This document shows, piece after piece, positions 703 through 51,412 of a stretch of DNA of 64,000 nt (positions within the stretch are counted from its first letter, which is position 1; each line of letters starts with the position of its first letter). A program made the position numbers and the translations under genes. Source of the stretch: Candidatus Latescibacterota bacterium. GTDB lineage: Bacteria > Latescibacterota > CBDEFO01. Below the pieces are notes generated by a model. That model ran no database searches. It was given only the letters and a program-made list of their open reading frames with translations, and was not told the origin of the DNA. The stretch lies in assembly GCA_965237525.1 (NCBI GenBank), contig CBDEFO010000007.1:384001-448000 (forward strand). Direction: 5' to 3'.

Positions 703-999
703 TAACGAGAGAAGAGGTACTGCCAAGTATGTTACTCATTCGATAACAGTCACAGGACTGGACGTTTTGCGAAATTGCAATTTTTTTAGTTTTGTAGTTC
801 TCTCAAAATGTTTGGATGACAGATGACACTTAAACGCCAAATTGAACAAGCGCAGGGAGATGCCGTAGTCTTAGACAGGCTCTATAGACAAGCCGTAGCC
901 GCTGGAGAGGAGAGTACTTTTAAGGAGGCAATAGCTCAATATTTAAAAGGCTTGTGAAATAGTTATCTTGTAGGCAGCGTCTGAAACGCCAATTATGGG

Positions 1000-2375
1000 T
1001 CAAACAGTAGCATATCGTATCGTTTTGCTATGGGATAAGCAAAATAGTCTCATCAGAGTTCTCGTCAGCAAGGAATAGGAGCTGTTTGAAGAACAGGATG
1101 CACTCTCTTCGACAGATAGAGCACATGCAGATGCTTTCCCCCTTCTTATGAAGGACACAAGCCTCTTGAGATTCTGTACCGTTGCAACAAGATTTAACTG
1201 TTCATTCAGTGAGGCTAGTCCTCTGTAACGGGCTCGTCCCATACCGTGCTGTTGCTTGGCTTCAGCAAAGATATGTTCACTGCGTTTACGGAGTCTCTGG
1301 GAGAGTTTGTAGTCAGCTGTTAATGAGATAGACCGTGCATGATTTCTGGCTTTCGCCTCTCGCACTTTTCTATCCCATTCGGTCTGAATATGTGCGAAAT
1401 TTGTCTTCTTTTTTCCAAGTAGGAATGGGATCAATCTCTTCACCTGATCGCAGAGGAATGTGGGGTATGATCCCCCGGTCACATACATCGGCGATAAAAT
1501 TACCTGAACCGTAACCTTTATCGGCAGCAAGTGTCCGAACGTCTTCGGGAATGGTGTACGTCTCAAGGTCATCAACCATCTTAAGGGCACTTTCGGACTC
1601 TGCTGTCCCTGTCGCCTGTGTGCCCTGTGTCTCAAGGATTACTCTGCTTTTTGTGTCCCCGATAGATTCAATCGGGGATCAGATCACGGCCCATAAACGA
1701 GAGAAAAGCCCCTTTGCCCTTTGATTTCCTGTACAAGCGGGCGTCGGGGTCTGTAATCGAACGATGTGTTTGGTTCGTCCACTTTTCACCATGAAAGTCT
1801 TTATCCTGAGGATGCACAGACCTACCCTTTGTCTTATCACCTTCAAAACCAATTCCCTTGAGGTAGTCATCAAGAGAAACAGGAGGTTCTATCGGCTCAA
1901 TACTCTTCACTGAAGCATCAGCTTGTATCTGAGTGCCATCAACACTAAGGTGTTTACCGCTCACAAGACCGACATCTATGCAGCACTGGACTACCTGATA
2001 CATTATCCGTTCAAACAACCCACTCGATGCCCACTTGTGATTGCGAAGCTTGTTGATCGTGCTTCTATCCGGAACCGCATCCTCAAATGTCTGATGACAA
2101 AACAACCGATATGCCGCATGCATCCCCACTTCCTGACAGAGCCGATTCTCACTCAAATTATACAGATAGCCAATAAGGATAATTCGAACAACCAATTCAG
2201 GATCAATGCCAGGTGTGCCATTGTCAGGGCAATAACAATCTGATACAACGCCTAGTACAAATGAAAAATCAACTGCCTCATCAATCTGACGGAGGATATG
2301 ATCCTCGGGAACTAAATCCTCCATCTGAAAATAGTGAACAATCGGATTTGTCTGTTCCTTCTTTTGTGGGGTCAT
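1000..2375 (-). pseudogene. IS1182-family transposase pseudogene
   Basis: Split across ORFs 1668-2375, 1370-1579 and 1000-1410. Motifs LVPEDHILRQID, VDGTQIQADAS, ADKGY, RKRSEHIFAEAK. Confidence 0.9.
1658..1676. repeat. 19-bp hairpin element (cccgatagattcaatcggg)
   Basis: Absent from the homologous position in IS copies 2 and 3, where the site reads gtgtc^gatcag. Confidence 0.95.
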
Positions 2376-2485
2376 TCTTTCCTACATGTATAATATTATC
2401 AATAACATAATATAATACATTGGACCTGCTTTATCAATGCTTTTTTTATACTATTTTCTGAATCTAAGGGTTTTCACAAGGCTTC

Positions 2486-2724
2486 TAAGAGATGCAGGTA
2501 TTCGACGGATTCGGTTTCACGATCTGTGTCACACTTACGCCAGCTTGTTGATCGCCCATGGGGAAAGTCCCAAGTATATCCAGAATCAGCTTGGACACGC
2601 GTCCATCACAACGACACTGGATCGGTATGGTCATCTGATGCCGGAGGTTCATCGGGAGGCAGCAAAGCGACTGGACGACCAGTTGTTTGGCGGGTTTAGG
2701 AGATTTACAGTAGAAAAACAGTAG
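2486..2724 (+). pseudogene. Tyrosine recombinase/integrase C-terminal fragment truncated by the IS
   Basis: RFHDLCHTYASLLI...YIQNQLGHASITTTLDRYGHL (HxxR box degenerate, LGH and catalytic Tyr present). Confidence 0.85.
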
Positions 2725-8882: not shown

Positions 8883-8901
8883 CCTGATTAAGTCTATCGG
8901 G
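8883..8901. repeat. 19-bp hairpin element (variant)
   Basis: cctgattaagtctatcggg; reverse complement cccgatagacttaatcagg. Confidence 0.8.
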
Positions 8902-13904: not shown

Positions 13905-14078
13905 AGGCAATCTATGTGAGATTGCTTCCCCCCGATAGATTCAATCGGGGGTTGCTCGCAATGACACTGGGATTTGGTCGTCATGACATTGCTTGGCTTC
14001 GTCCTTTGGTCATTGCTAGGGGCAAGGCCCCGAGTTCCGATCCCCAATTGATGCTGTTGGGGATTCAATCGGGGACTC
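13905..14078. repeat. Cluster of palindromic repeats: gagattgcttc...ctcgcaatgac element with a 19-bp hairpin at 13931-13949, plus nested hairpins at 14036-14073
   Basis: Direct reading of the sequence. Confidence 0.75.
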
Positions 14079-17387: not shown

Positions 17388-17482
17388 AATGTGCGATCTG
17401 TTTGCAGATAACAAGTCGACAGATCGAGTATTTCAGGATTTAAGACAGTAGATGATCCGAAGAATGACTTCTCAAAACTGTC

Positions 17483-17501
17483 CCCAATAGAATCAATTGG
17501 G
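17483..17501. repeat. 19-bp hairpin element (A-T stem variant)
   Basis: cccaatagaatcaattggg in ctgtc^gatcaa. Confidence 0.9.
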
Positions 17502-17655
17502 GATCAACATCCCATCTATATCATCGGGATGCCACCAAGGGATACCTTTCTTCCACTTTTTCTGTGCATCAAAAAGCTGGGACGGACAGACTTCACATAG
17601 AATGGGAACTACTTCTGGAAAGGTGTTCTCACAAGTATCAGCACTAACACCAGTC

Positions 17656-17674
17656 CCCGATAGGTTCAATCGGG
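17656..17674. repeat. 19-bp hairpin element
   Basis: cccgataggttcaatcggg in cagtc^ggctc. Confidence 0.9.
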
Positions 17675-17799
17675 GGCTCCTGCCACCGAAAGAGAGACAT
17701 TATGGCGCAAATAGATTAATGACAGCAACAGCTCCTGATATGGCGCACGCCGTCGCTTGCGTCCTCCACCTGTGGCACGTTTGCGATTAGGTTGCAACG

Positions 17800-20526: not shown

Positions 20527-20651
20527 GAGGAGCAAGAAGACGGATATATTGGTCGGAGGGTTCGTGATCGTAGCTATCGGCCTTTTGGTCTTTACGATAG
20601 TGCTCAAACAGGGGTTGACATTAGGGCATTATCCGCTCTTTGTGGAGTTTA

Positions 20652-22172
20652 GAAGCCTTGTGAAAAACCCTTAGATTCAGAAAGTAGTATAGAACAAGCA
20701 TTGATAAAGCAGCTCCGATGTATTATATTATGTTATTGATAATATTATACATGGAGGAAACAATGACCCCACAAGAGCAGGAACAGACAAATCCGATGTT
20801 TCACTATTTTCAGATGGAGGATTTAGTTCCCGAGGATCATATCCTTCGTCAGATTGATGAGGCAGTTGATTTTTCATTTGTACGAGACGTTGTATCAGAT
20901 TGTTATTGCCCTGACAATGGCAGACCCGGTATTGATCCTGAATTAGTTGTTCGAATGATCCTTATTGGCTATCTGTATAATTTGAGTGAGAATCGGCTCT
21001 GTCAGGAAGTGGGGATGCATGCGGCATATCGGTTGTTTTGTCATCAGACATTTGAGGATGCGGTTCCGGATAGGAGCACGATCAACAAGCTTCGCAATCA
21101 CAAGTGGGCATCCAGTGGGTTGTTTGAACGGATAATGCGTCAGGTAGTCCAGTGTTGCATAGATGTCGGTCTTGTGAGCGGTAAACACCTTAGTGTCGAC
21201 GGCACTCAGATACAAGCTGATGCTTCAGTGAAAAGTATTGAGCCGATAGAACCCCCTTTTTCTCTTGATGATTATCTCAAGGGAATCGGTTTTGAAGGTG
21301 ATAAGACAAAGGGTAGGTCCGGGCATCCTCAGGATAAAGACTTTCATGGTGAAAAGTGGACGAACCAAACACACCGTTCGACTACAGACCCCGACGCGCG
21401 CTTATACAGCAAATCGAAGGGCAAAGGGGCTTTTCTCTCGTTTATGGGCCATGATCTGATCGACACAAAAAGCAGAGTAATCCTTGAGACTCAGGGCACG
21501 CAGGCGACAGGGACAGCAGAGCCCGAAAGTGCCCTTAAGATGGTAGATGACCTTGAAACATACACCATGCCCAAAGACATTCAGACACTTAGTGCCGATA
21601 CCGGTTACGGTTCTGGTAATTTTATCGCTGATGTACTTGACCGGGGAATCATACCCCATATTCCTCTGCGAGCCGATGAGAGGATTGAACCGATTCCTAC
21701 ATGGAAAAACAAGACAAATTCAGCACATATTCAGGCCGAACGGGATAGAAAAGTGCGAGAGGCGAAAGCCAGAAATCATGCACGGTCTATCTCATTAACA
21801 GCTGACTACAAACTCTCCCGGAGACTCCGTAAACGCAGTGAACATATCTTTGCTGAAGCCAGGCAACAATACGGTATGGGACGAGCCCGTTACAGAGGAC
21901 CAGCCTCACTGAATGAACAGTTGAATCTTGTTGCAACAGTACAGAATCTCAAGAGGCTTGTATCTTTCATAAGAAGGGGGAAAGCGTCTATGTGTGCCCT
22001 GTCTGTCAAAGACAGTGCATCCTGTTCTTCAAACAGCTCCTGTTCCTTGCTGACCAGAACTCTGATAAGACTATTTTGCTTATTCCACAGCAAAACGATA
22101 CGATATGCTACTCTTTGACCCATAATCGGCGCTTCAGACGCTGCCTGGGACATAACTATTTCACAAGGCTTT
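20652..22172 (+). mobile_element. IS1182-family-like insertion sequence, copy 2 (1521 bp)
   Basis: Inverted repeats aagccttgtgaaa/tttcacaaggctt; TA duplicated within a TTAA target. Confidence 0.92.
20763..22118 (+). CDS. IS1182-family DDE transposase (intact)
   Basis: GRPGIDP, VPDRST, VDGTQIQADAS, STTDPDARL, ADTGY, RSEHIFAE; RBS ggagg. Confidence 0.9.
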   Translation: MTPQEQEQTNPMFHYFQMEDLVPEDHILRQIDEAVDFSFVRDVVSDCYCPDNGRPGIDPELVVRMILIGYLYNLSENRLCQEVGMHAAYRLFCHQTFEDAVPDRSTINKLRNHKWASSGLFERIMRQVVQCCIDVGLVSGKHLSVDGTQIQADASVKSIEPIEPPFSLDDYLKGIGFEGDKTKGRSGHPQDKDFHGEKWTNQTHRSTTDPDARLYSKSKGKGAFLSFMGHDLIDTKSRVILETQGTQATGTAEPESALKMVDDLETYTMPKDIQTLSADTGYGSGNFIADVLDRGIIPHIPLRADERIEPIPTWKNKTNSAHIQAERDRKVREAKARNHARSISLTADYKLSRRLRKRSEHIFAEARQQYGMGRARYRGPASLNEQLNLVATVQNLKRLVSFIRRGKASMCALSVKDSASCSSNSSCSLLTRTLIRLFCLFHSKTIRYATL

Positions 22173-22976
22173 TAAGTCGATAGGAAATATAGGAGTGGGC
22201 GCGAAGGTGAAGTTGAGAGGCTTTGAGGTGGGAAAGGTCAAGCAAGTTGAGTTTTATCCTGAACCGCAAAAAGAGGGTGTCTTTTTTGTGGTAGAGTTGG
22301 CTATCAAGAACGAATATCCTGTTATTGAGGGAACAGTGGGAGAGGTTAAGGGAGGGGGGATTGTGGGCGATAGTTTTATAAATTTAGACGTTTCGAGTCA
22401 GGGGCACCTGCCGTTTAAGGCCGGTGCTACTGTGAAGGGTAAGGAAGCTCTAGATACCGGGACACTTATGGCCAAGGCAGTCACTATGCTGGAGAGGATG
22501 ACTGAAATGTCAGAGAGGATAAGGGACGCAGAAATTGGGGGTAGATTCAAGAAGTTTGTGGAGGTAGTTCACAAGATTTCAACAGATGTGGAGGGTTTGA
22601 GCAAGGACGCCCAGTCTATGCTCACAAGGAGCGAGTCCCTAATTGCGACCGTGGAGCCGGGCCTTAAGAAGTCTATAGATAAGTTGAATGAAGACCTGGA
22701 TTACTCGAAGGAGACGTTGACGAGTCTGAACGAAATATTAGGTGACAACAGTGAGAACATAAAGGATGCGCTGGAGGCTCTCCAGAGGAGTTTGAATCAG
22801 ATGGAGAAGTTGATGTCCAATCTGGACAATCTAACTGTAGAAAATAGAGCGCAAATAGATTCGACGCTCAAAAACATGGAGGATATTTCGGCGTCTTTCA
22901 AGGATGTGGCGAGGCATCCGTGGAAGATCATATTCGGGGGTGTGAAGGGAGGACAAGGGGACAGTCGTCAGTAGCT

Positions 22977-23014
22977 CCCGATTGAACCCCCAATTGAATC
23001 TATTGGGGGGCGGG
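22977..23014. repeat. Nested pair of 19-bp hairpin elements
   Basis: cccgattgaacc[cccaattgaatctattggg]gggcggg. Confidence 0.85.
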
Positions 23015-23077: not shown

Positions 23078-23815
23078 TTGTTCAAATCCAGAGTTCCGGT
23101 CTTTGATGGAAATGTGGCTTTGGGGAGGAGGCACGATGCGAGGGTGAGCGTGGACACCCCGGAGGGTCTTCTGATGGTTATGGAAAGACTTGGAATAGAT
23201 AAGGCATTAGTTTACAATCCCTATGGGGTTACATACGATAGCGTTAAGGGGAATAGAGAGATTCTGAAAACCGTTGAGGGGTTTTCAGAGCTTGTGCCTC
23301 AGTTTGTAGCCAATTTCCCAGCTGAGTCATTTGAGGATTTTAAGGAAGGTGTTAAGGATAAAGGGATAAAGAGTCTGAGGGCATACCCAAAGACACACAC
23401 GTATCCATTCGTGTCGTGGATGGTGGGGGATTGGATGGAGTGGATAGAGGATGAGGGGATAGCCTTATGGCTCCCAATTGATGAGGTGGACATCAAGGAC
23501 CTCTATGAGATGGCAAGGGCGCATCCGGCGATAAACATAGTGCTGGTGGGGGTGCATTACACCCACCAAATTGTGATTTTTGGAATGATGGAGCACTTAC
23601 CGAATCTCTACGTGGAACTTTCACGGTATTACGTTATGGAACCTGTCGAAAGATTTGTGAGCAGATTCGGTTCCCAAAGGTTGATATTCGGCTCGGGCTC
23701 CCCTGACATGGACGGAGGGGCGTATCTTTATTATCTGAACAACTGCGGGCTATCTGACAACGTTTTGAGGGCTATCTGCCGGGATAATCTGGAGGTTCTT
23801 CTAAATGGCGATTGA
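23078..23815 (+). CDS. Amidohydrolase_2 family protein with degenerate metal site
   Basis: FDGNV in place of DxHxH; LIFGSGSP in place of FGSDxP; TTG start after aaggag. Confidence 0.75.
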   Translation: MFKSRVPVFDGNVALGRRHDARVSVDTPEGLLMVMERLGIDKALVYNPYGVTYDSVKGNREILKTVEGFSELVPQFVANFPAESFEDFKEGVKDKGIKSLRAYPKTHTYPFVSWMVGDWMEWIEDEGIALWLPIDEVDIKDLYEMARAHPAINIVLVGVHYTHQIVIFGMMEHLPNLYVELSRYYVMEPVERFVSRFGSQRLIFGSGSPDMDGGAYLYYLNNCGLSDNVLRAICRDNLEVLLNGD

Positions 23816-24563
23816 CGGAGCTAAGGTCATAGATTTTCACTGTCACATAGGCACCTGGCAGCGCTTGTGTATGTACGACGATCTGGAGGATATGATAAGG
23901 GTTATGGATTCTGCCGGGGTAGATATGGCGTGTCTCTTTAACAACTTCCGGGGGAATGCTAGTTTCGGGAACGATGAAGTAGCCAAAGCTGTGGAGCGCT
24001 ATCCGGACAGGTTCATAGGGTTTGCTTTCGTGACTCCGCACTACCCTGAGGAGGTGGAAAACGAGCTACTTAGGGTGATCGATAGACTCAAAATGAGGGC
24101 GATAAAGATATATCCTCCGTATTTTGGGAGGTCTGTGGAGGATCCCGCATGGGAAGGGATATTCAAGTTTGCAAATGAAAGGGGTTTAACGATTATATCG
24201 CACACAGATGTTACTGGCGGTCCCAGTAATCCGTCTTTCTTCGTGCCGTTAGCCCAGAAATATAAGAATGTAAAGTGGGTGTTGGGACATGCGGGCGTGA
24301 CTCCCCCAGGGAGAATTGAGGCCATAGAGGCGGCGAGAAAGTGTTCAAATATCTATCTTGAGATATGTTCGTCTTACAGCACTTTCGGGTCTGTGGAATT
24401 CCTCGTAAACGGAGCGGGGGAGGATAGAGTGTTGTTTGGGTCTGACATGCCTCTTATGGATCCGAGGATACATTTAGGGAGGGTTATGACCGCTGATATA
24501 TCTGAGAAGTCAAGACACAAGGTGTTAGGAGAGAATTCCTTAAGGCTTCTAGGTCTTAGCTGA
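23805..24563 (+). CDS. Amidohydrolase_2 family protein, copy 1
   Basis: IDFHCH, IKIYP, LGHAG, VLFGSDMP. Confidence 0.9.
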   Translation: MAIDGAKVIDFHCHIGTWQRLCMYDDLEDMIRVMDSAGVDMACLFNNFRGNASFGNDEVAKAVERYPDRFIGFAFVTPHYPEEVENELLRVIDRLKMRAIKIYPPYFGRSVEDPAWEGIFKFANERGLTIISHTDVTGGPSNPSFFVPLAQKYKNVKWVLGHAGVTPPGRIEAIEAARKCSNIYLEICSSYSTFGSVEFLVNGAGEDRVLFGSDMPLMDPRIHLGRVMTADISEKSRHKVLGENSLRLLGLS

Positions 24564-24834
24564 GGATCTATTACAAATGCAAATAAAGTTTCTCCACACT
24601 TTGTGATTTTTGGAATGATGGAGCACTTACCGAATCTCTACGTGGAGCTTTCACGGTATTACGTTATGGAACCTGTCGAAAGATTTGTGAGCAGTTTCGG
24701 TTCCCAAAGGTTAATATTCGGGTCGGGCTTCCCTGAGATGGATGGAGGGGCGTATCTTTATTATCTGAACAACTGCGGGCTATCTGATAACGTTTTGAGG
24801 GCTATCTGCCGGGATAATCTGGAGGTTCTTCTAA

Positions 24835-25593
24835 ATGGCGATTGATGGAGCTAAGGTCGTAGATTTTCACTGTCACATAGGCACCTGCCAGCGCTTGCGT
24901 ATGTACGACGATCTGGAGGATTTGATAAGGGTTATGGATTCTGCCGGGGTAGATATGGCCTGTCTCTTTAACATCCACCGGGGGAATGCTAGCTTCGGCA
25001 ACGATGAAGTAGCCAAAGCTGTGGAGCGCTATCCGGACAGGTTCATAGGGTTTGCTTTCGTGACTCCGCACTACCCTGAGGAGGTGGAAAACGAGCTACT
25101 TAGGGTGATCGATAGACTCAAAATGAGGGCGATAAAGATATATCCTCCGTATTTTGGGAGGTCTGTGGAGGATCCCGCATGGGAAGGGATATTCAAGTTT
25201 GCAAATGAAAGGGGTTTAACGATTATATCGCACACAGATGTTACTGGCGGTCCCAGTAATCCGTCTTTCTTCGTGCCGTTAGCCCAGAAATATAAGAATG
25301 TAAAGTGGGTGTTGGGACATGCGGGCGTGACTCCCCCAGGGAGAATTGAGGCCATAGAGGCGGCGAGAAAGTGTTCAAATATCTATCTTGAGATATGTTC
25401 GTCTTACAGCACTTTCGGGTCTGTGGAATTCCTCGTAAACGGAGCGGGGGAGGATAGAGTGTTGTTTGGGTCTGACATGCCTCTTATGGATCCGAGGATA
25501 CATTTAGGGAGGGTTATGACCGCTGATATATCTGAGGAGGCAAGACACAAGGTTTTGGGAGAAAATGCCTTAAGGCTTCTGGATCTTGGCTGA
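24835..25593 (+). CDS. Amidohydrolase_2 family protein, copy 2
   Basis: Near-identical to 23805-24563. Confidence 0.9.
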   Translation: MAIDGAKVVDFHCHIGTCQRLRMYDDLEDLIRVMDSAGVDMACLFNIHRGNASFGNDEVAKAVERYPDRFIGFAFVTPHYPEEVENELLRVIDRLKMRAIKIYPPYFGRSVEDPAWEGIFKFANERGLTIISHTDVTGGPSNPSFFVPLAQKYKNVKWVLGHAGVTPPGRIEAIEAARKCSNIYLEICSSYSTFGSVEFLVNGAGEDRVLFGSDMPLMDPRIHLGRVMTADISEEARHKVLGENALRLLDLG

Positions 25594-26965: not shown

Positions 26966-27002
26966 TCCCCGATAGGTTCACTCGGGGATAGGTTCAATCG
27001 GG
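26958..27002. repeat. Nested pair of 19-bp hairpin elements overlapping the sbcD stop
   Basis: cccgatagtc[cccgataggttcactcggg]gataggttcaatcggg. Confidence 0.85.
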
Positions 27003-30100: not shown

Positions 30101-30244
30101 GTTGGAGCCATAGATAAGATAAGTAAGGATTTCGACAAGATACTTGTGGTTACGCATTTAGAGGAGTTGAAACGGGCTTTTCCCGTCAGGATTGAAGTGA
30201 GAAAAAATGCTCGATCTGGATCGGAATTCGAGATCGTTACTTGA
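27197..30244 (+). CDS. sbcC: Exonuclease SbcCD subunit C (SMC/Rad50-like ATPase)
   Basis: Walker A GENGHGKS, coiled coils, CPLC zinc hook, YSGGE, IDEGFG. Confidence 0.95.
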   Translation: MIPVKLSLRNFLSYGEDVRPLDFSGFHVACLSGENGHGKSALLDAMTWSLWGQARKSRSRGANEGLLKIGASEMRVEFEFDLEEQRFRVIRSFRRGKGSGRPSLEFQVYDNDKGKYRVLSDVSSMRRTQEEIDDALKMDYDTFINSAFILQGRADEFTRKTPTERKQILADILGLSKYDLLWELSRSHYNKLDNEIEGYCRESQRIDEELSHKDLYKEQIDGLTVRLSELSRGIESLEKVFSELREKKGDLERKREQVEDLESELDRIQDEIDDIKGQIDSSSDQISEYEKIICKEDEIKSDISTYNRLMDQEREFTQRLGRLRDLESRKADVDRKVEEAKHEVEKCRNLWEERLGSAENVLDEAKEILKREKEIANGYKELMKSRRENEKMEGLRRSQDELLKAELEIQRKIEKLKSGLEVELGTLRNQITELDSKADAQEHLKGRLEKIRQELERLEVLESESENIRDKGSELNVKIDGDIKGVQDLEKEIAEENDKLDLIKESQDSSCPLCESHIDEEKRENIVRKMEEKIEKVKAEIAVIQGELEEDEKERSELRRKYREAKEVLESLPSIRSGAAQAEALFNEAVEAEGKIAELKEDEEAVRRRLDERDFAPEEREDLEKVKRQIEKLGYNTQKHEEIGETLQKLKGYEAEKARLDSTLERYNAAKEAIPGIKEEIRTAKLYLDEKKYAEKEQKEVERVLDEIQKVEYDKREHEKIRLELDSLSQAPVQAERLRDARDKIDAVKEVLKILEKRFEDRMKRQDETKGNVKGLKVEIAGTVDVEQKISGIEKTLRDSRVNREKLLGEQGSAQARYDKCLELEEEKKEVTESLRKAQEERDIYDKLRRAFGKDGIQALIIENAIPEIEDEANDILSRLTDNKTHISIESQRGLKSGGLRETLDIKISDELGERDYELYSGGEAFRTNFALRIALSKLLARRAGTKLRTLVIDEGFGTQDSEGLGHLVGAIDKISKDFDKILVVTHLEELKRAFPVRIEVRKNARSGSEFEIVT

Positions 30245-30246
30245 TG

Positions 30247-30284
30247 CCCAATCCCCGATAGACTTAATCGGGCATTCCATTGGG
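30247..30284. repeat. Nested pair of 19-bp hairpin elements
   Basis: cccaatc[cccgatagacttaatcggg]cattccattggg. Confidence 0.8.
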
Positions 30285-30308
30285 GGGAAGCAAGGAGGAA
30301 AAGCGATC

Positions 30309-31016
30309 ATGGCTGCTCTTTCAAGATGGATGATTCTGGTGCATCTTGTTTGTCTGGCAGTCTCTTGCTATGCACAGGATGAGCGGCACGGCCGCTTTGT
30401 CGGGGAGGATGGCAACAAGTCCCCGATTGAATCTATCGGGGATCATATGAAAAGGGACGCCGGGATGGTACAGATCGAGAATTTCAAGATAGACAGGTAC
30501 GAGTATCCGAATATCGTGGGGGAATATCCGCTTTATAATGTGAGTTGGTACGAAGCTCAGGCTAAGTGTAAATCTAAAGGGAAACGCCTATGTTCTGAAG
30601 CAGAATGGGAAAGAGCTTGCACCGGGATGAATAATCACGTGTATCCTTATGGGAACAGTTTCGATGAAGACAAGTGCAATACGCCCCATCAAGTGGATGG
30701 AAACTGGGGACGCGACAGGGGTATTGCAAAGATAGGAAAGTGGAAAGAATGTGTCAGCGACTATGGTGTCTATGATATGAGCGGGAATGTGTGGGAGTGG
30801 GTCGATGGGGTCTACTCTTCAAGGGAGGGATGGCGTGTGGTCAAGGGGGGATCGTGGTTTCAAAACGTGAACTTCGCGACGTGTTCTGCCAGATACGGAA
30901 GATATCTGACTCCAGATTACAGGCTGGATCTGATAGGCTTTAGATGTTGTCAGTCCCCGATTGAACCTATCGGGGATCAGTCTGTAGCGGTAGAAACAGA
31001 TGGGGACCAGAATTAA
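30309..31016 (+). CDS. Secreted FGE-sulfatase (SUMF1/EgtB/PvdO family) domain protein carrying two 19-bp hairpin insertions
   Basis: Signal peptide; IDRYEYP, KRLCSEAEWERAC, YDMSGNVWEW, GGSW, GFRCC; insertions at 30422-30440 and 30956-30974. Confidence 0.85.
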   Translation: MAALSRWMILVHLVCLAVSCYAQDERHGRFVGEDGNKSPIESIGDHMKRDAGMVQIENFKIDRYEYPNIVGEYPLYNVSWYEAQAKCKSKGKRLCSEAEWERACTGMNNHVYPYGNSFDEDKCNTPHQVDGNWGRDRGIAKIGKWKECVSDYGVYDMSGNVWEWVDGVYSSREGWRVVKGGSWFQNVNFATCSARYGRYLTPDYRLDLIGFRCCQSPIEPIGDQSVAVETDGDQN

Positions 31017-37369: not shown

Positions 37370-37412
37370 TTGTTCATTCCTTTGCGAAGGGGTTAAAATC
37401 GACAGGTACTTA

Positions 37413-38933
37413 AAAGCCTTGTGAAATAGTTATGTCCCAGGCAGCGTCTGAAGCGCCGATTATGGGTCAAAGAGTAGCATATCGTATCGTTTTGCTGTGG
37501 AATAAGCAAAATAGTCTTATCAGAGTTCTGGTCAGCAAGGAACAGGAGCTGTTTGAAGAACAGGATGCACTGTCTTTGACAGACAGGGCACACATAGACG
37601 CTTTCCCCCTTCTTATGAAAGATACAAGCCTCTTGAGATTCTGTACTGTTGCAACAAGATTCAACTGTTCATTCAGTGAGGCTGGTCCTCTATAACGGGC
37701 TCGTCCCATACCGTGTTGTTGCCTGGCTTCAGCAAAGATATGTTCACTGCGTTTACGGAGTCTCCGGGAGAGTTTGTAGTCAGCTGTTAATGAGATAGAC
37801 CGTGCATGATTTCTGGCTTTCGCCTCTCGCACTTTTCTATCCCGTTCGGCCTGAATATGTGCTGAATTTGTCTTGTTTTTCCATGTAGGAATCGGTTCAA
37901 TCTTCTCATCGGCTCGCAGAGGAATATGGGGTATGATTCCCCGGTCAAGTACATCAGCGATAAAATTACCAGAACCGTAACCGGTATCGGCACTAAGTGT
38001 CTGAATGTCTTTGGGCATGGTGTATGTTTCAAGGTCATCTACCATCTTAAGGGCACTTTCGGGCTCTGCTGTCCCTGTCGCCTGCGTGCCCTGAGTCTCA
38101 AGGATTACTCTGCTTTTTGTGTCGATCAGATCATGGCCCATAAACGAGAGAAAAGCCCCTTTGCCCTTCGATTTGCTGTATAAGCGCGCGTCAGGGTCTG
38201 TAGTCGAACGGTGTGTTTGGTTCGTCCACTTTTCACCATGAAAGTCTTTATCCTGAGGATGCCCGGACCTACCCTTTGTCTTATCACCTTCAAAACCGAT
38301 TCCCTTGAGATAATCATCAAGAGAAACAGGGGGTTCTATCGGCTCAATACTTTTCACTGAAGCATCAGCTTGTATCTGAGTGCCGTCGACACTAAGGTGT
38401 TTACCGCTCACAAGACCGACATCTATGCAACACTGGACTACCTGACGCATTATCCGTTCAAACAACCCACTGGATGCCCACTTGTGATTGCGAAGCTTGT
38501 TGATCGTGCTCCTATCCGGAACCGCATCATCAAATGTCTGATGACAAAACAACCGATATGCCGCATGCATCCCCACTTCCTGACAGAGCCGATTCTCACT
38601 CAAATTATACAGATAGCCAATAAGGATCATTCGAACAACTAATTCAGGATCAATACCGGGTCTGCCATTGTCAGGGCAATAACAATCTGATACAACGTCT
38701 CGTACAAATGAAAAATCAACTGCCTCATCAATCTGACGAAGGATATGATCCTCGGGAACTAAATCCTCCATCTGAAAATAGTGAAACATCGGATTTGTCT
38801 GTTCCTGCTTTTGTGGGGTCATTGTTTCCTCCATGTATAATATTATCAATAACATAATATAATACATCGGAGCTGCTTTATCAATGCTTGTTCTATACTA
38901 CTTTCTGAATCTAAGGGTTTTTCACAAGGCTTT
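37413..38933 (-). mobile_element. IS1182-family-like insertion sequence, copy 3 (1521 bp; intact transposase 37467-38822)
   Basis: Near-identical to copy 2; TTAA at both ends. Confidence 0.92.
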
Positions 38934-38976
38934 TAATGAACTACTAATGAACTACTATATGTGGGTACAGGGAAAT

Positions 38977-40734: not shown

Positions 40735-41100
40735 GTTCCACTACGCCAACGTGGACGTGATCGGGGACAAGGTGTTCATAAGCTACACTCGTGGTACGCC
40801 TGTAAAGGGAGTTACGGAGGAGAACCTGAAGAAACAGGAAACCGTAATGCGCATCTATCCGCTGGAATGGTTCTACAAGTAGTTTGAAGTGATTGGTGCC
40901 TGCGTGTGACAAATACCGATATGCGCAGAGATGAGTATAGAAGTAAACCGAGGTCAATTCCCTGGTGGGAAGCAAATACAATCTCAGACCGGGCAGACTC
41001 CCACTTGGTATAATGCAGGTTCCTTCGGGCCTTTAACTACAGGAGTTATAAGATGAAACGCATTGCAGTTTTGAGTGTTGTCAGTCTGATTGTAGCGGTT
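40735..41100 (+). repeat. Duplicate of 42117-42490 (sialidase 3' end + intergenic leader + signal-peptide start)
   Basis: Colinear high similarity visible by eye. Confidence 0.85.
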
Positions 41101-42266
41101 TGCCTCGGGAGGCAATGTGGCAAACGCCGGTCAGGGAGCTTGTCTTCCGCAAGCCCGTCCCGGAGGGCGTCGTGGAGATAAAAGGTTTCAACGTCCCTCT
41201 CGGCGGCATAGTTGAGCTGAAGGACGGCTCGCTAATACTTTCTCAGGGCGGCGGATTTCGCATCTCGACCGATGGCGGCTTGACCTGGGGCGAAGCTCTG
41301 CCGCCGAAGGCGAAGATGAAGAATATTGTGGGTCTTTTCCGACTCAAGTCCGGCGCGTTGGCAATTTATGGACACAATATATCCATAAACGATAAAGACT
41401 GGCTCTTCTCTTTGTCGACCGATGAGGGTAAGACCTGGAGCGAGCCAACGGCGATCTGCCCGCTGTCATTTTCATTGATGAATCACAGCATGGTTCAGCT
41501 CAGCAGCGGTCGATTGCTGCTCACCTTCCAGCAAGGCTGGGCCGGAGCGCACCCGGACCTGGATTATCATGAAAAGTCGGCGTACGGCCTCTGGCGGGGC
41601 AAGCGCATTCAGATAGAGGGTCACGGCCACATCCCCCGAGTTTGGGATGTCAGTCGTTTTTCGTTCTCGATAACGAGGGTAAGAACTGGAATAAAGATGT
41701 TGCTGGCAGATTGATGGGGTGGTTTGACGCCGAGGGCGTACCCAATGGCCGCGACGGGCAGACGAGCTGTTTTGAGCCCACTGTCGCGGAGACTAAAGAC
41801 GGAGGGGAAAACTGGTATGCAGTGACGCCCAGCCAGCTTGGCCAGTTCAGCGTCACCTGCCGTTCTGGCTCGTATCCCCCAGACCGGAGACCTTCTGGTA
41901 GTCTGGAACCAGGTTTCGCGTGATGAGATTCGACTGGGCCATCGGCGAGGTCGGTTATCAGTCGCCATTTCCAGGGACGGTGGACACAGCTGGGAGCACT
42001 TCAAGACTCTTGAACTAAGCGACGGTCTCAGAGACATTTCCCACCTACCTGGCGAGTACCCAATCCAGATGGTGCGAGCTCGTGACTGGGTCGGCCCATT
42101 ACCGGACGGGTGGGCCTGGTTCCACTACGCCAACGTGGACGTCATCGGGGACACAGTGTTCATAAGCTACACTCGCGGTACGCCCGTAAAGGGAGTTGCG
42201 GAGCAGAACCTGAAGAAACAGGAAACCGTAATGCGCATCTATCCGCTGGAATGGTTCTATAAGTAG
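41053..42266 (+). pseudogene. BNR/Asp-box sialidase-family pseudogene
   Basis: STDGGLTW, STDEGKTW, SRDGGHSW; frameshifts near 41100, 41640 and 41835 and an apparent deletion at ETKDGGENW. Confidence 0.8.
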
Positions 42267-42437
42267 CTTGAAGTGATTGGCGCTTGCGTGTCGCAACGAG
42301 CAATATGCGCACAGATGAGTATAGAAGTAAACCGGGGTCAATTCCCTGTTGGGAAACCAGTACAGTCTCAGGCCTGGCAGAGACTCACTTGGCATAAAGC
42401 AGGTTCTTTTGGCCCTTTAGCTAACAGGAGTTATAAG

Positions 42438-43763
42438 ATGAAACGCATTGGAATTGTGAGTGTTGTCAGTCTGATTGCCGCGTTTGCCTGGGGAACGATT
42501 TTGGCAAACGCCGAGGAAACGAGCGAAAGGGGTAAAGCAGAGATGAAGAACTTGCAACAGGATTCCCCAAAACAAGAAAGTGAAAGACCTCTGCAGTCCC
42601 AAGAGGAGTTCATTGCCATTCGAAACCCGCGCCAGCTAAAAGTGGCAGAGATACCAGCGGAACGGGTTCCGATAGGCCAAAAGCTTGAATACAAGCCCAA
42701 CATCGCACACCTGGGTGGAGATGAGTTGCTGCTATTGTGCTACCTGAACGATGTAGCAGCAGGGCTACCCACCTACCTGTATCGTTCGCACGACGGCGGT
42801 CGTACCTGGGAAGGAGGGCGCGACGAGACCAGTCTGCCAGACGGGGGCGAGCCGTATCTGTCGCGCATGCGAGACGGCACGCTGTTGGTCACAGGTGGAC
42901 CATGGGGGTACCGCTCGGAGGACGATGGATACACCTGGTCCCAATACCAGCTGCCTCCGGAATTTGCCACCAGGGTCAGGGGGAACAACTCGCGAAATAT
43001 ACTGGAGTTGGAGGACGGTTCGTTACTGCAGATTGTCGATATACCTGAAGACGATCCCATTCTTCGCCATTCTCAATACGGGAATGGATACGTCGCCCGG
43101 AGCTACGATGGGGGTCGGACCTGGCCGGACTGCTACCCGATAGAAGTAGAAGGGGTGGCGGAAGGCTATCCCCGGTCCATCTTTGGAGAGGTAGTGCTCT
43201 GGCAGGCGCGTTCCGGGAAGATTTACGGTATAGCCAGGCTTGATCATCAGTTCTATCCCCTTCCCGGGCGGGTGTTCACCCCCCAGGAGCTCGGAAACGT
43301 GGCCGTAACCCTGCGGCACTACGGGCAGCCCCCGGTGCAGGATCTTGCCGATACCACCTTCGACCAGTTCGGACGAATGAAAGCTTGGTATTCTACCGAC
43401 GAAGGCCACACGTGGCAGCCCGGTGCGGACCTGGGCGACCACGGCCAGATGTTTCATTCCATTCTGCGGTTGAGGGATGGACGGCTGCTGTTTACTTATA
43501 CGCAGCGTTCGATCGATCCTCCTCTCGGTGTGCGTGCGGTGCTCGGTCGGGAAACCGAAGATGGATTCGAATTCGATTTTGAGCACGATATCTTCATGAT
43601 TGACACCAAGACTCCCATCGATCGCAGCTCGGGCGGAGGTTTTGGCAACACCGTCCAGCTGGACGACGGCACACTGGTGACTAGCTATTCCTATTGGCGG
43701 CCTGACGAAGGAGAATCGGGCAAACTCTTCAATTGTGAAGTGGTTCGCTGGCGTTTACCGTAA
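42438..43763 (+). CDS. Secreted BNR/Asp-box (sialidase-family) protein
   Basis: Signal peptide; SHDGGRTW, SEDDGYTW, SYDGGRTW, STDEGHTW. Confidence 0.88.
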   Translation: MKRIGIVSVVSLIAAFAWGTILANAEETSERGKAEMKNLQQDSPKQESERPLQSQEEFIAIRNPRQLKVAEIPAERVPIGQKLEYKPNIAHLGGDELLLLCYLNDVAAGLPTYLYRSHDGGRTWEGGRDETSLPDGGEPYLSRMRDGTLLVTGGPWGYRSEDDGYTWSQYQLPPEFATRVRGNNSRNILELEDGSLLQIVDIPEDDPILRHSQYGNGYVARSYDGGRTWPDCYPIEVEGVAEGYPRSIFGEVVLWQARSGKIYGIARLDHQFYPLPGRVFTPQELGNVAVTLRHYGQPPVQDLADTTFDQFGRMKAWYSTDEGHTWQPGADLGDHGQMFHSILRLRDGRLLFTYTQRSIDPPLGVRAVLGRETEDGFEFDFEHDIFMIDTKTPIDRSSGGGFGNTVQLDDGTLVTSYSYWRPDEGESGKLFNCEVVRWRLP

Positions 43764-44282
43764 GAGGAGTCCGGGATGCTGCACAAGGGCCAGTTCTGCC
43801 GGTGGGTTTTTATCCCGCCATTACCTGGGGGGATCATCCATTGCCAGACCGCGGTTACGTCAAAGCATCCGCTGTCCTCGCGGAGAGCACAGGAGCCAGA
43901 TTAGTGCGATGTCCCTAAAGTGCACGCAGGTCTGAGGAGCACCTTGCCTTGACCGTACCTCCGACTGGTAACGTCAGAAGAAGTTCAAATCAGCACAGGC
44001 GGCGCCCGGCAGCGCAGTGGATCGAGGACGGGCTGGCGCTTCAGTACATGCCGAAGAGCGGCTCGATCGGACGCCCGCTGCTCCGGGGGGGGTACGCCGC
44101 ACCCATGCATACTAACGACTGAGGCACCCTGACCGGCGGTTCTGGGGCGAGGATCTGTGGGAGGGATGGGTGAGCGTGGCTAGGTGAATTTTCTGGCAGA
44201 GCTGAGACCGATCTCAGTCCAGGCAGACTCTCACCTGGCAAAAGGCAGGTTTTTCTTGGGCTTTGACTACAGGACATATAAG

Positions 44283-45005
44283 ATGGAATGCATTGCAGTT
44301 GTGAGTGTTTTCAGTCTAATTGTTGCTTTTGCCTGGGGAAGCAGTTTGGCAGACGCCAAGACTCCCGAAGCTGTGGACCTGGCCCGGCTTAACGACTGGG
44401 ACATCGTCGTAGCTGAGGACGCTATCCCCAGTGAGATATACGCGGCTGAGGAATTTCAGAAATGTTTTGGCCGAGCCAGTCGCGTGAAGCTCCCGATCGT
44501 GCGCAAAGTGGATGGGCTTGACAGGCACGTAATTATCGGTCCCAGCCAGGCCATGCGCGCGAGTAACCTTGGCTTCGATGTTCACGACTTCGGTTACGAA
44601 GACCTCCGCATCGTGATCCGCGGCGGTAGCATAGCCATTGTAGGTATCCGGCCTCGCGGCAGGCTTTACGGCGTCTATACGTTTCTGGAAGACTACCTGG
44701 ACGTACGGTTCCTCAGAGATGAACATACACACGTAACTGCTGTCGGCCAGCAGCAAACGATTGGCCCGGTAGACCGTGTCTATCGCGCACCTTTTGCGAA
44801 TTTACGCCCGACCGGGTACAATGCACCTTATCATTACGTGTTTTTTGGGGTCCGTACTCGCAACAATGGCTTCCATGACCAACCGAGGTTTGGTGGCACT
44901 TCGCCATTCGGGAATACCAATCACAGCTTCTATCGGTAAGTGCCTTACCAGGAATACAGCAGAGATCATCCGGAGCACTTTGGTCTCTGGGATTGGAAAC
45001 GCCGG
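44283..45005 (+). pseudogene. 5' fragment of a DUF4838 paralog
   Basis: Homologous to the array genes; TAA at 44937 replaces CAA; homology stops at about 45005. Confidence 0.85.
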
Positions 45006-45107
45006 GAGGGGCGTTACACTGGCGGTTTGAAGGCCGCGGCAAGGGTCATATGTGACCGCTTCGACAGCGGTTTGTCCGCTAAATTTCGGTTATGTAAAGG
45101 AGCTCAG

Positions 45108-46997
45108 ATGGAACAGTTATCCGCACTAATGGTGTTTGCAGCTGTGCTATTGACGGCGATTTTATTGCCGGCTGGAGGCCTTAGGGCTGAAGCTTCGGTG
45201 GAGTTCTATGTTTCACCGACCGGTCATGACAACAATCCCGGCACCAAGCAGAAGCCATTCGCCGGCCTCACTAGAGCTCGGAATGCAGTCAGAGAAAGGA
45301 CTAAGACAGAGCAGACAGCCAACATTGTTGTGTTCCTTCGAGGTGGCACTTATGAAATGAAAGAGCCGCTGATTCTGGGACCGGTAGATTCGGGGACTGA
45401 CAAATTCTCGATCACCTATGCGGCCTATCCTGGTGAGAAACCGATTATCAGCGGGGGAAGAAGAATCACTGGCTGGAAACAGGGGCCCGGCAAGATATGG
45501 GTGGTCGAACTGCCGCAAGTCAAGACGCAGAAATGGTACTTCCGTCAACTTTTCGTTGATGGCAAGCGAGCCACTCGAGCCCGGACTCCCAACGCCGACA
45601 ACAAGGACCAGTATCTGCAGGTGAAGGACGCGGAGCTGAAAGACGATATCTGGAAGGTCATCTTGGCCCCTGACCAGGTCAGAGACTGGTCAAACATGGC
45701 AGATGTCGAGATCGTCGTTCTTGGACTATGGGATATTATGCGCAAGCAACTGGCGAGTGTTGATGAGGCGAAGGGCGAAGTAATTCTGGCCCCGCCTCAC
45801 GTTCCAACACACCACCACGATCCGAGATCGGGCAGTTGGTGCTTCTTCGAAAATGCCATCGAGATGCTCGATCAACCCGGGGAATGGTACCTGGACCGCT
45901 CCAGCGGCGTCCTTTCATATTGGCCACTGGACGGTCAGGATATGTCGAAGGTTGAGGTAGTAGCGCCGGTCCTCGCGCAACTTCTTGAAATTGCGGGCAC
46001 ATCGGATCAATTGGTGCAAAACGTGCATTTCAAAGGTCTGACTTTCAGGCATGCCCGGTGGCCGCTGCCCCCATGGGGATTTGCAGGCAGGCAGGCCGGT
46101 ACGATGTACGGAGGCACAGGATTCATCGGCGAGGCGATTTTGTGGAAATTCGTAGAGTCATGCAGCATGACCGACTCCGAGATCGCCCACGTGGGCGGGT
46201 GCGGGATAAGTCTGCGCAAAGGATGTGTCAAAAACCTCGTTGAGGGAAACCATATTTATGATATCGGTTCCAACGGTATCAATGTCGGAGAGGACTTATC
46301 AATAATTTACGATGAAAATTATACGCCACCTGATTCGGACACGCCTCGCGACAATCGCATCACAAACAACTATATCCACGGATGTGGCGCAGATTTCTAC
46401 GGCGGGATAGGGATATACATTGCCTTCACTGACGGAACGGTCGCTGCGCACAATCTCCTTCACGACCTTCCCTACACAGGTATCAGTGTGGGTATGATGT
46501 GGGGTGGCCAACCTACCGTATGTCGTAACAATGTCATTGAGTACAACCACATCTACGACGTCATGAAAAGGATGGGTGATGGGGCTGGCATATACACGCT
46601 GGGCTTTCAACCTGGCACGGTCGTTCGCAACAACCTGATCCATGATGTCAGGCGCAACCCATTTGCCCGGGGTGCTCCCTACGCTGGGCTGTACGTTGAC
46701 AGTCGTTCCTCCCAGATCCTTGTCGAGGCCAACACGGTCTACGGACTGGCACAGCCCAAATGGCCCTGCACGCCTGTTTTGATTGGCCATTATTCGAGGG
46801 ACATTGTCTTTCGCCACAATGTCTTTGTTGTTTCAGAGGCCGAAGTCAAACCGTTTGCTTACTACAACTCGAAAGAAGAAGATTTCAAGTTCGAGAACAA
46901 TACGACGATTACGCAGGCCGAATGGAAAGCACCACCGGATTTGGAAACTCGGACGGGGCTTCAACCTCCTTATCGCAAGGCGCTTCTGGGACAATAG
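45108..46997 (+). CDS. Secreted right-handed parallel beta-helix protein (GH141-like)
   Basis: FYVSPTGHD.NPGT..PF, LRGGTY, AYPGEKP.ISGG, LDQPGEWY, repeated N.IH strands. Confidence 0.85.
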   Translation: MEQLSALMVFAAVLLTAILLPAGGLRAEASVEFYVSPTGHDNNPGTKQKPFAGLTRARNAVRERTKTEQTANIVVFLRGGTYEMKEPLILGPVDSGTDKFSITYAAYPGEKPIISGGRRITGWKQGPGKIWVVELPQVKTQKWYFRQLFVDGKRATRARTPNADNKDQYLQVKDAELKDDIWKVILAPDQVRDWSNMADVEIVVLGLWDIMRKQLASVDEAKGEVILAPPHVPTHHHDPRSGSWCFFENAIEMLDQPGEWYLDRSSGVLSYWPLDGQDMSKVEVVAPVLAQLLEIAGTSDQLVQNVHFKGLTFRHARWPLPPWGFAGRQAGTMYGGTGFIGEAILWKFVESCSMTDSEIAHVGGCGISLRKGCVKNLVEGNHIYDIGSNGINVGEDLSIIYDENYTPPDSDTPRDNRITNNYIHGCGADFYGGIGIYIAFTDGTVAAHNLLHDLPYTGISVGMMWGGQPTVCRNNVIEYNHIYDVMKRMGDGAGIYTLGFQPGTVVRNNLIHDVRRNPFARGAPYAGLYVDSRSSQILVEANTVYGLAQPKWPCTPVLIGHYSRDIVFRHNVFVVSEAEVKPFAYYNSKEEDFKFENNTTITQAEWKAPPDLETRTGLQPPYRKALLGQ

Positions 46998-47367
46998 CAA
47001 GGGTTCCACCGCCTATGATTGTGAGCACGACTGGTAACTCTTGAGGGCAGAATTAGCGAACAAATCGGGCACTGCCGCGGGTTCCAGATGGGCGATACAT
47101 CTCTAATCGTGTCTCCAGAGCTCGTCTCCCGCCGTCACAATGCGCGTCGGACAACGTGATGGTCACAGAAGCATCAGTCCCGGACGGTCTGGCTGATTAC
47201 TGGTACGATGCAGGCCGCAAGATGCGCAGCCATTTTGTAGAAGTTCAACTAACGCGGCTGATTCTTTTCGCTGTATAGGCGTGATCACTGGCGTATGAGC
47301 AAAGCGCGCTGGTACCGGGTCTGCCGCTTCGTCTCTGATGAGACGCTTATATGAGAGGAGGTTCACG

Positions 47368-49125
47368 ATGTCTTCACACGATCTGCCCTGGCGGGTGATG
47401 ACTTTGTGGCAGCAGATTGACGGAGATGTACTGTTTACCGACGAACCGACAGTTCTTCAGTCGCGGGAGATGCTGAATCCTACTGCGGATTCGGAGCTGG
47501 GCAGGTTCGTGGATTTTATCGCATCGATTGGTATCAACGCGCTGGACCTTCGCTATTACACGGATGAACAGCGTCCTGCGCTGGCGTCGTTTGCTGGATA
47601 TTTGAAGGCCAGGGGCATCCGGCTGTTGATCTGCCGACAGTGGACGGAGTTGGAGACGGGTGAGCTGATCTGGCTGCCTCTCCGTAATCGAGACCTTAAG
47701 CGCACCTCCCCTCTCTTGTGTCCCTTCAATGAGCAGGTCCGGCGATATTGGCAGGAGGCGGTCGGCGCAGACTTCCGGGAGATTCCCGATCTGGGAGGTT
47801 ATTCATTCGGCATTACGACTGAATACTACATGTCGAACGGTGCGCCCTGGATGTGTGACTGTTCCAGGTGTGGGTCTCTGAGCCGCCGGGAGCGTCTGAT
47901 CGAGGCTCTGCGATTTCTAGGGGGACTGCTTGCTGGTCACGGCGGTCTGCTGCTCTGGAACAACCACCAGGACGACCCCTGGGGCCAGCGCGTTGAAATC
48001 GAACTCTTTTCTGACCTGACGGGTCGGCTGCCTGAGAACGTTGTGGTAATGTTCTCTGATCTTTACTGGGACCAGGAACCAGGATGGCCGGCGAATCCAA
48101 TGTATGATCATTTGCGGGTTCCGTCCTCTGGTTGTGCGCCTTATGTGCCGCGCATCCAGTTGCCCGGGCAGTACCGGGGTATGAATCTCTTTCCTTGCTC
48201 GATGGTAGAAGCATGGGCGCGTACGTTTCGGGAGATCAGCCGTTTGCGGCTGTCCGGGTATTGGGTACAGGCGTTCATCAACCGTACTGAGTGGGATCAT
48301 CCCTGGAACATGGCGCACTGGTATGCCCTGGACCGATATGCGAGCGATCCGGAGACGGAGCCTGGGGCCATCATGTTTGACTGGGCTGCGCAGACGTATG
48401 GTGCGGATGCAGCGCCCGCTGTCGTGGAGATTCTTCGTCTCAGCCAGAAGGCGAGCATCAACATGTTCATGTGTCAGGGCCTGATGACCAGTGGGCAGAG
48501 CCAGCTTGCATCTCTGGTCTACCTTGATTCACATCTTTGCGGGCCGTATCGGGAAGCGCCGCGCATACCGGGCCAGATCGGTCTGGACTTTCCGTTGGAC
48601 ATGTACCCCGATCAACGCGCCGCCGAGATCAGAGCCCTCCCTGGCACTCGTCTGCTGTTCGTCCGCGAGCCGATCACGCCGGAAGTAAAGGCCCGAGCAC
48701 TGGCCGAGAAGGATGAGGCAATTGAACTGATCGATCGGATGATCGGCCTCTGGCAGAGCGTGAACGGGACGGTGGATGCGGAGGTGCACAAGGCCATGGC
48801 GGTTCGCCTGAATGGCAATCGCGTGGATGCCATGGTTTTCAGGGTGGTACTGGATCTCTACTTTGACTGGAAGCTGGGTTCTTTAAGTGATGCTCGGATC
48901 GACGAGGTGGTCGGTGGTTTTGCGGGGTTGAAGGGACAGGTGGTGCCCGATCCTGCAGGTCTGCCTCCCACGCATCGGCGGAGTTCGGAGGACGATCTGA
49001 CGCGCAACCTCTTCAGTTTCGCCGAAGAACTGCGCCTTGAAATGCACAAGCCATGGATCGAACAGCATTTCAAGGCCAACCCGCTGGGCGGTGGCATCTT
49101 GCCTGAGGAGGTGAAGTCCGGTTAG
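47368..49125 (+). CDS. Hypothetical protein, possibly glycoside hydrolase-like TIM barrel
   Basis: Long ORF with RBS aggagg; YW......FREIPDLGGY and CDCSRC; family uncertain. Confidence 0.65.
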   Translation: MSSHDLPWRVMTLWQQIDGDVLFTDEPTVLQSREMLNPTADSELGRFVDFIASIGINALDLRYYTDEQRPALASFAGYLKARGIRLLICRQWTELETGELIWLPLRNRDLKRTSPLLCPFNEQVRRYWQEAVGADFREIPDLGGYSFGITTEYYMSNGAPWMCDCSRCGSLSRRERLIEALRFLGGLLAGHGGLLLWNNHQDDPWGQRVEIELFSDLTGRLPENVVVMFSDLYWDQEPGWPANPMYDHLRVPSSGCAPYVPRIQLPGQYRGMNLFPCSMVEAWARTFREISRLRLSGYWVQAFINRTEWDHPWNMAHWYALDRYASDPETEPGAIMFDWAAQTYGADAAPAVVEILRLSQKASINMFMCQGLMTSGQSQLASLVYLDSHLCGPYREAPRIPGQIGLDFPLDMYPDQRAAEIRALPGTRLLFVREPITPEVKARALAEKDEAIELIDRMIGLWQSVNGTVDAEVHKAMAVRLNGNRVDAMVFRVVLDLYFDWKLGSLSDARIDEVVGGFAGLKGQVVPDPAGLPPTHRRSSEDDLTRNLFSFAEELRLEMHKPWIEQHFKANPLGGGILPEEVKSG

Positions 49126-51352: not shown

Positions 51353-51412
51353 TTGAACGGTGACGAGTAGCGTCAAGAGCCAGGCTGGAAGAGGACTCGA
51401 TCTGTGTCTAAC

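Follow-up and report, generated by a model that had tools for sequence, protein, structure and literature searches.

A dispersed 23-nt hairpin in a Latescibacterota genome that appears to replace bases of its target

A 23-nt hairpin, YC-CCCGATAGATTCAATCGGG-GR, is dispersed as a mobile unit through the genome that contains the window, the whole 64-kb stretch of DNA analysed here. From comparisons of filled and empty alleles in this genome (G000) and a congeneric, ~95% identical genome (G001), we are highly confident that the unit is 23 nt long and that replacement of target bases is its usual junction. A sequence-only reading of the window had described a single site, in which a transposase gene carries 19 extra bases, as a clean insertion of a 19-bp element. 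The 19 extra bases are present, but other filled/empty pairs show a 23-nt unit, and a lone "clean, no-duplication" junction can thus mislead on both element length and insertion rule.

The hairpin and its copies

G000 carries 569 copies at ≤3 mismatches, 131 of them exact. At the same tolerance the window alone has 13, where 100 shuffles gave a mean of 0.01. When folded, the 23-mer at 1656..1678 forms an 8-bp stem and a 7-nt loop (−7.5 kcal/mol, z −3.2). Compensatory changes occur in the stem, where a G-C pair is replaced by A-T in 23 copies and by T-A in 9, and an A.A mismatch is preserved in 535/569 copies. Position −1 is C in 94% and position +1 is G in 93% of copies (n=569). The outermost bases fall mainly into matched classes, with TC..GA ends in 251 of the 569, CC..GG in 154 and mixed ends in 63. 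Positions −2/+2 can pair in 79% of copies versus 47% after shuffling, while ±3 pair in 24% versus 33%, so pairing ends there. Matched ends were also found at metagenome loci, in 56 of 57 distinct contexts.

A rough ORF call places 393 copies between genes, 95 near ORF ends and 79 well inside ORFs. There was no orientation bias relative to neighbouring genes (141 vs 140) and no clear link between element orientation and GC skew. A neighbour lies within 200 nt of 101 of the 569 copies, and copies that lie close together usually share an orientation.

Within the window, filled/empty comparison and folding identified the plus-strand copy at 1656..1678, which has TC..GA ends and accounts for a net gain of 19 bases at 1658-1676. 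Further plus-strand copies lie at 13929..13951 (exact core, CC..GG ends), 17481..17503 (TC..GA ends, with a compensatory A-T for G-C change in the stem) and 17654..17676 (1 mismatch), and a diverged core with 3 mismatches lies at 8883..8901 on the minus strand. Two copies are nested: that at 22987..23009 (minus strand) was read from the sequence as lying inside a second copy, and that at 26966..26988 (plus strand; C7 410968) lies in another copy, is flanked by repeated TAG and has a net gain of 26. The remaining three overlap ORF 30207-31016, which encodes an FGE-sulfatase domain; they lie near its start (30254..30272, plus strand), in its interior (30420..30442, minus strand, exact core) and near its end (30954..30976, minus strand). 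This ORF stays open despite its overlap with the three hairpin copies.

Other repeats were noted in the same DNA. Window positions 23571-25593 hold two 252-aa ORFs in a ~1030-bp direct duplication (96% identical), and positions ~41000-59600 hold a tandem family of ~1.9-kb paralogous genes with a common leader and a signal-peptide-like start. Two families of 17-nt palindromes occur in G000, CCCCGATTAAATCGGGG (17 copies) and CCCCCTTAATAAGGGGG (10 copies), the former sharing the element's arms. CTAG is strongly avoided across G000 (observed/expected 0.27).

Junctions of filled and empty sites

The 19 extra bases first noticed lie in IS copy 1 (943..2488, minus strand), an old, diverged IS1182/IS5-like copy whose transposase, running from ~2375 to 1000, is broken twice. 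They occupy window positions 1658-1676, between C1657 and G1677 and about one base from where the sequence-only reading had placed them, and zero bases are lost or duplicated at the junction. The interrupted gene encodes a DDE transposase of the IS1182/IS5-like type, with matches to PF05598, PF01609 and PF13751; it scores above the cut-off of NF033581 and just below that of NF033551. As had been proposed, the insertion frameshifts the transposase, and a second lesion, +1 base near 1410-1414, causes another frameshift. No Rfam match was found at 1500-1850. At the corresponding site IS copies 2 (20649..22177, plus strand) and 3 (37408..38936, minus strand) read GTGTC^GATCAGATC inside intact 466-aa ORFs (20718-22118 and 37467-38867). 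Their empty junctions are 21462|21461 (minus strand) and 38123|38124, and their empty targets are the TCGA at 21460-21463 and 38122-38125.

Copies 2 and 3 had been taken as the empty state of copy 1. They are indeed empty, but they do not represent its direct pre-insertion state, as they belong to a young expansion of ~134 copies whose members match copy 2 at 99-100% identity. Copy 1 shares only 93% identity with copies 2 and 3, and where it differs from copy 2 it does so mainly at third codon positions (53 vs 19 and 21). That the empty state is ancestral is nevertheless upheld, because a tree built from 9 IS copies has empty sites both in the sister clade (copies 2 and 3 and the G001 copies) and in an 88%-identical outgroup IS subfamily of G001. 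Alignment of the genomic IS copies, a check that the sequence-only reading had proposed, found 135 empty paralogous sites; the element is carried by 2 of 142 IS matches, at different positions. The G001 orthologous locus is without the IS, and G001 therefore provides no empty allele of copy 1 itself. The IS1182/IS5-like element has undergone a recent burst, with ~134 near-identical copies in G000 and a handful of matches in 2.0 Mb of G001.

A 371-nt contig from run X1 covers positions 1347-1717, insertion included, with 0 differences and 0 gaps. Its depth is 10.5, comparable to the unique flanks (11.4-11.6), whereas the multicopy empty form reaches ~1030. An assembly slip is made less likely by this filled, single-copy contig, although X1, which may be the source sample, does not count as independent support. 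Copy 1 adjoins a 95-aa phage-integrase fragment (window 2437-2724), and between the flanks that both genomes share at this locus G001 has unrelated DNA.

To delineate the junction more generally, G000 was compared with 2.8 of G001's 4.54 Mb. Orthologous flanks were available for 557 copies, of which the two genomes share 326; another 74 were empty in one genome, and 157 were unclear and excluded. The 74 empty sites reduced to 64 distinct filled/empty pairs. Net gain in these pairs was 18 (7 pairs), 19 (13), 20 (11), 21 (4), 22-23 (none), 24-26 (5), 27 (14) or other (10). Grouped more broadly, gains of 18-21 were seen in 35 pairs, 22-23 in none and 24-30 in 21, with 8 outside this range. Five of the 35 were dropped (for nesting in a 17-mer, diverged flanks, a degenerate core or a duplicate repeat), leaving 30 replacement pairs. 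Gains occurred in both lineages, 9 of these 30 in that of G001.

If the element simply inserted between C and G, the flanking bases should match between filled and empty alleles. In the 30 pairs, filled and empty alleles differed in 18 at position −2 and in 18 at +2, against a background of 4.9% further out. Mismatches were fewer at −1 and +1 (11 and 15) and at −3 and +3 (8 and 7), and fell to 3 each at ±4. For the net +19 set, which comprises 12 pairs after omission of one ambiguous pair, the central four bases were unchanged in 2, the window site included, where 82% would be expected (p 2e-6). A generous reading that also admits one pair with a later mutation and one with CCGG in paralogues gives 4 of 12 clean (p ~3e-4, by hand). 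At 15 of the 16 differing positions in these pairs, it is the filled allele that carries the element consensus. The replacement covers 2-5 target bases, with a mode of 4. Replaced words include ACGA, GCGA, TCGT, CCGA, CTGA, ACAG, GCAG and ACGC, and the targets thus loosely follow R-N-C-G-A-Y. Two junctions from another phylum, judged by eye, replace 9 and 14 nt.

The clean C^G junction thus holds at the window site and fails as a general rule, since other pairs replace bases. At the window site the junction seems clean because the target, TCGA, has the same letters as the hairpin's incoming TC and GA ends, and this site alone cannot tell 19, 21 or 23 incoming bases apart.

Nested copies provide a second view of the junction, as their ancestral state is known from the outer copy, which fixes it. 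In 24 of 36 distinct nested cases the identical 4 bp of the outer copy, TAGA/TCTA, are deleted, with the two orientations contributing 14 and 10 cases. The remainder show changes of −6 (2), −5 (4), −1 (2), 0 (1), +2 (1) and +3 (2). Nested composites probably spread as units, and the independent −4 events are probably fewer, about five inner-variant/orientation classes by eye.

A minority of copies carry short flanking repeats. Of 433 non-redundant copies, 20 are directly flanked by exact 4-nt repeats, as compared to 3.3 ± 1.7 in shuffled controls (maximum 10 in 1000); exact repeats of 5 nt flank none of the 433 and those of 3 nt flank 32. Part of the 3-nt excess is a feature of the target, which includes period-7 repeats, and for three of the copies concerned the empty allele gives a net gain of 19. 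The repeated 4-mer is single in the empty allele of two pairs (TTCA, TTGA), as are a 3-mer in two and a 2-mer in one. Among the net +27 pairs an exact 4-nt repeat was found in 3 of 14, one of them a tandem-array unit; the others are without a repeat, are array changes or could reflect deletion of a hairpin. Hairpins stimulate deletion, which could yield some of the +27 pairs. Outgroup protein alignments were compatible with the +27 polarity in one gene and uninformative in another. Two tandem arrays with a 27-nt unit (the 23-mer plus 4 nt) were observed in G000, at C8:740139-750956 and C8:1729778-1729805, and the two genomes, G000 and G001, have different numbers of units in them.

Net gain is divisible by 3 at 13 of 17 sites in long ORFs and at 14 of 39 elsewhere (p 0.008), and three of the four long-ORF sites at which it is not lie in IS sequences, the window site among them. 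In-frame gains of +18, +21 and +27 add peptides to genes such as those for LptD and an M28 peptidase.

A predicted enzyme and alternative explanations

We tentatively favour, at a little less than an even chance, a predicted trans-acting nuclease or strand-transfer enzyme that joins the hairpin into a 4-nt staggered break, so that the hairpin is gained singly and usually replaces ~4 bases. The folded hairpin would be the substrate bound by the protein, and the target would be cut on both strands ~4 nt apart. Trimming of the overhangs would give the common −4 junction, ragged from −2 to −5, and their fill-in the rarer duplication of +3/+4. At 1656-1678 in the window, a 23-for-4 swap at TCGA would appear as a clean +19, and in working genes selection would retain only the in-frame outcomes. 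Loss and duplication are of equal length, which points to one staggered-break intermediate with two fates, trimming or fill-in. That either orientation gives the same outcome is consistent with a symmetric substrate and with cuts set by the target. The boundaries are sharp and copies in different phyla agree letter for letter, both of which suggest recognition of the hairpin by a protein.

Whether the hairpin represents a distinct minimal class of mobile DNA, moved by an unrecognised enzyme that makes a 4-nt staggered cut and deletes or duplicates the same four bases, is a more doubtful proposition. If it does, this class would consist of a 23-nt hairpin, identical across phyla, that adds 6-9 new amino acids to proteins. 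The means by which repeats the size of REPs and SDRs spread have long been in question, and clean before/after sites are rare; the 30 replacement pairs, a 23-nt substrate, a preferred target and a fixed internal 4-bp hotspot make a testable system.

A search for the moving enzyme found no candidate family common to the two high-copy genomes, G000 and G001. In G001, a single contig with 98% completeness, there was no match to PF01797, NF047646, NF033573, PF02371, PF04480 or a small GIY-YIG protein. Since 9 of the 30 replacement gains occurred in the G001 lineage, the absence of these families counts against the explanation that we favour; the mover enzyme may since have been lost. PF01797 was found in neither of the two genomes, a reverse transcriptase only in G001, and IS110 and a small GIY-YIG gene only in G000. 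NF047646 (RAYT-like) was present in G000, G041, G042 and G044 (4 of 5 genomes tested) and not in G001; DUF559 was present in G000, G042 and G044; NF033573 gave nothing above cut-off and nothing in G000 or G001; and four-helix PF05635 was not in G000. No multi-copy gene family flanked by the element was conspicuous.

The alternative that survives best, which we nonetheless consider unlikely, is that an HUH enzyme (RAYT/TnpA-REP) or an Ssn-type GIY-YIG nuclease acts in trans and ligates the hairpin into one strand between nearby cuts, with the +3/+4 class arising from later slippage deletions or by chance. According to the part of PMC8266576 covered here, TnpA-REP cuts several sites near a REP and joins strands. 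G000 has candidates for both enzymes. Its RAYT-like gene (C8:1476118-1476648; L217:1441-1971) scores below the family cut-off and is flanked by GTAGGGGCG-type REPs, the downstream one of which contains a hairpin copy, and its ssnA-like gene (C4:479839-480159) lies between classical NTS-type hairpins. RAYT-like matches in 4/5 genomes tested point the same way, as do the tagged NTS-like hairpins of L104 and L154, from two other phyla, whose stem is a close variant of the core. Against this, the RAYT-like and ssnA-like genes each have their own, different cognate hairpins, and no GTAG, GTGG, CGTC or TGTC tag is conserved beside the element, each occurring in ≤32/569 copies per strand. G001 is without both genes: its locus orthologous to that of the RAYT-like gene lacks it, the ssnA-like query had no match in G001 or G041-G044, and PF01541 matches in G001, G041, G042 and G044 were to UvrC-sized frames only. 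A hairpin copy lies nearby in just 1 of 10 RAYT loci, no RAYT or Ssn homologue was found in 132 outside loci, and the identical 4 bp are lost in either orientation. The G000 RAYT-like gene has NHIH, WQ and YIMKNP motifs and an internal REP-like sequence, as in the available account of RAYT subclass 2.4.

Enzyme-free template switching, in which a nascent strand uses 1-3 nt of homology at C and G and returns off register, is less probable again. It would explain why the high-copy genomes share no enzyme, and it fits empty targets that have C at −1 in 11 of 12 pairs and G at +1 in 10 of 12, ends that are ragged by one base (8/30 differ at −3 and 7/30 at +3) and the frequent targeting of hairpins, heptamer runs and older copies. 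It accounts poorly for boundaries sharp enough that mismatch falls to 3/30 at ±4, and letter-identical copies in distant phyla suggest a constraint imposed by protein. Flank matching does not favour it either: the match at the window site is 10 nt versus a median of 9 at random target-like sites, and the higher mean over the 30 events (14.3 vs 9.2) appears due to sites in shared repeats.

We regard as improbable a clean 19-nt insertion at C^G whose flanks changed later by mutation or by palindrome-perfecting repair. Such an insertion fits the window site and at least one other (ACGT), and most targets contain the C and G; yet the central bases are altered in 10 of 12 net +19 pairs, and net gains of +18, +20, +21, +26 and +27 are left unexplained. 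In 3 pairs, moreover, the −2 and +2 letters occur on neither side of the target, which arm-to-arm copying cannot give, and pairing stops before ±3. Least probable of all is that a DDE transposase resident in the genome moves the hairpin as an ultra-short MITE and duplicates 4 bp, with the −4 class arising secondarily: exact 4-bp flanking repeats are in excess and the genome has many active IS families, but the excess amounts to only ~17/433 copies, most copies show no fixed-length duplication (4-nt 20/433, 3-nt 32/433), most paired junctions lose bases, and the element's ends are unlike those of the interrupted IS, the one IS compared. The earlier argument against a DDE mechanism is borne out insofar as a standard DDE junction does not describe the element.

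Related repeats and distribution

The closest known elements are the cyanobacterial SDRs, of which SDR1-8 of the Nostocaceae were described by Elhai et al. in 2008 (doi 10.1101/gr.074336.107), and the REP/NTS hairpins. The element resembles the SDRs by description, in that it is very short, dispersed and apparently mobile without a known enzyme. SDRs are reportedly 21-27 nt long, self-nesting and inserted into heptamer runs; the unit seen here, within the 21-27-nt range, is gained singly and nests in itself and in other repeats. In the portions of the SDR literature covered, SDR5 insertions lie exactly between bases 3 and 4 of HIP1, GCGATCGC (PMC4390886), and none were found outside the Nostocaceae (PMC5861425); the account given here also draws on part of PMC2884548. 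HIP1 contains CGAT, as do many hairpin targets here. The element differs in having no fixed octamer target (the preference being the loose RNCGAY), in mostly replacing bases, and in occurring in Latescibacterota, 'Deltaproteobacteria' and Thermodesulfobacteriota records. It may be said to work much as the Nostocaceae SDRs seem to, by analogy and with no claim of identity.

REPs and REPINs, as described in the parts of PMC3116915, PMC8266576 and PMC6006769 covered, are likewise high-copy hairpins with a conserved stem mismatch that are mostly intergenic and sometimes in-frame in genes; the comparison with known systems also drew on passages of PMC10969869. Unlike REPs, the element has no tag (GTAG in 20 and 18 and GTGG in 18 and 11 of 569 copies per strand, with 8.5-10.4 expected) and no cognate RAYT, and it inserts into REPs. 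Doublets are the proposed REPIN unit, whereas the element occurs mostly as singlets (101/569 with a neighbour within 200 nt). The dRS3-like, CGTC-tagged NTS/SRM hairpins share a CCC-rich stem with it; in the parts of PMC11893778 and PMC3733652 covered, Ssn needs the tag for cutting and is shown to cut rather than insert. Within 8 nt of the 23-mer, TGTC was found in 13 and 32 and CGTC in 2 and 4 of the 569 copies. The core is present in just 1 of 12 tagged hairpins of G000, whose ssnA-like gene has another hairpin, and G001 is without such a gene. The element may be a tag-less offshoot of the NTS-like hairpin class. The literature surveyed, which consisted of main texts from largely non-subscription papers, contained no description of this repeat or of paired −4/+4 junctions; supplementary REP and SRM sequence tables may list the repeat.

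Outside G000 the element is abundant in G001, with 318 copies at ≤1 mismatch, and none of 39 other genomes of the phylum had any match at that threshold. When a looser 23-nt pattern was used, 10 of the phylum's 149 other genomes had matches, never more than 3 each. No viral contig matched the core exactly. The identical core was found in 'Deltaproteobacteria', Thermodesulfobacteriota and one Nanoarchaeia record (12 of 59 loci) and in 120 metagenome loci. Outside records had 54, 18, 8, 11 and 1 matches at ≤2 mismatches, some of them counted on both strands. The 23-mer was also observed within runs of heptamers, of the GTAGACA type in G000 and of the TTTCTAA or TTTCAAA type in unrelated bacteria (L108, L235, L237, L263 and L316).
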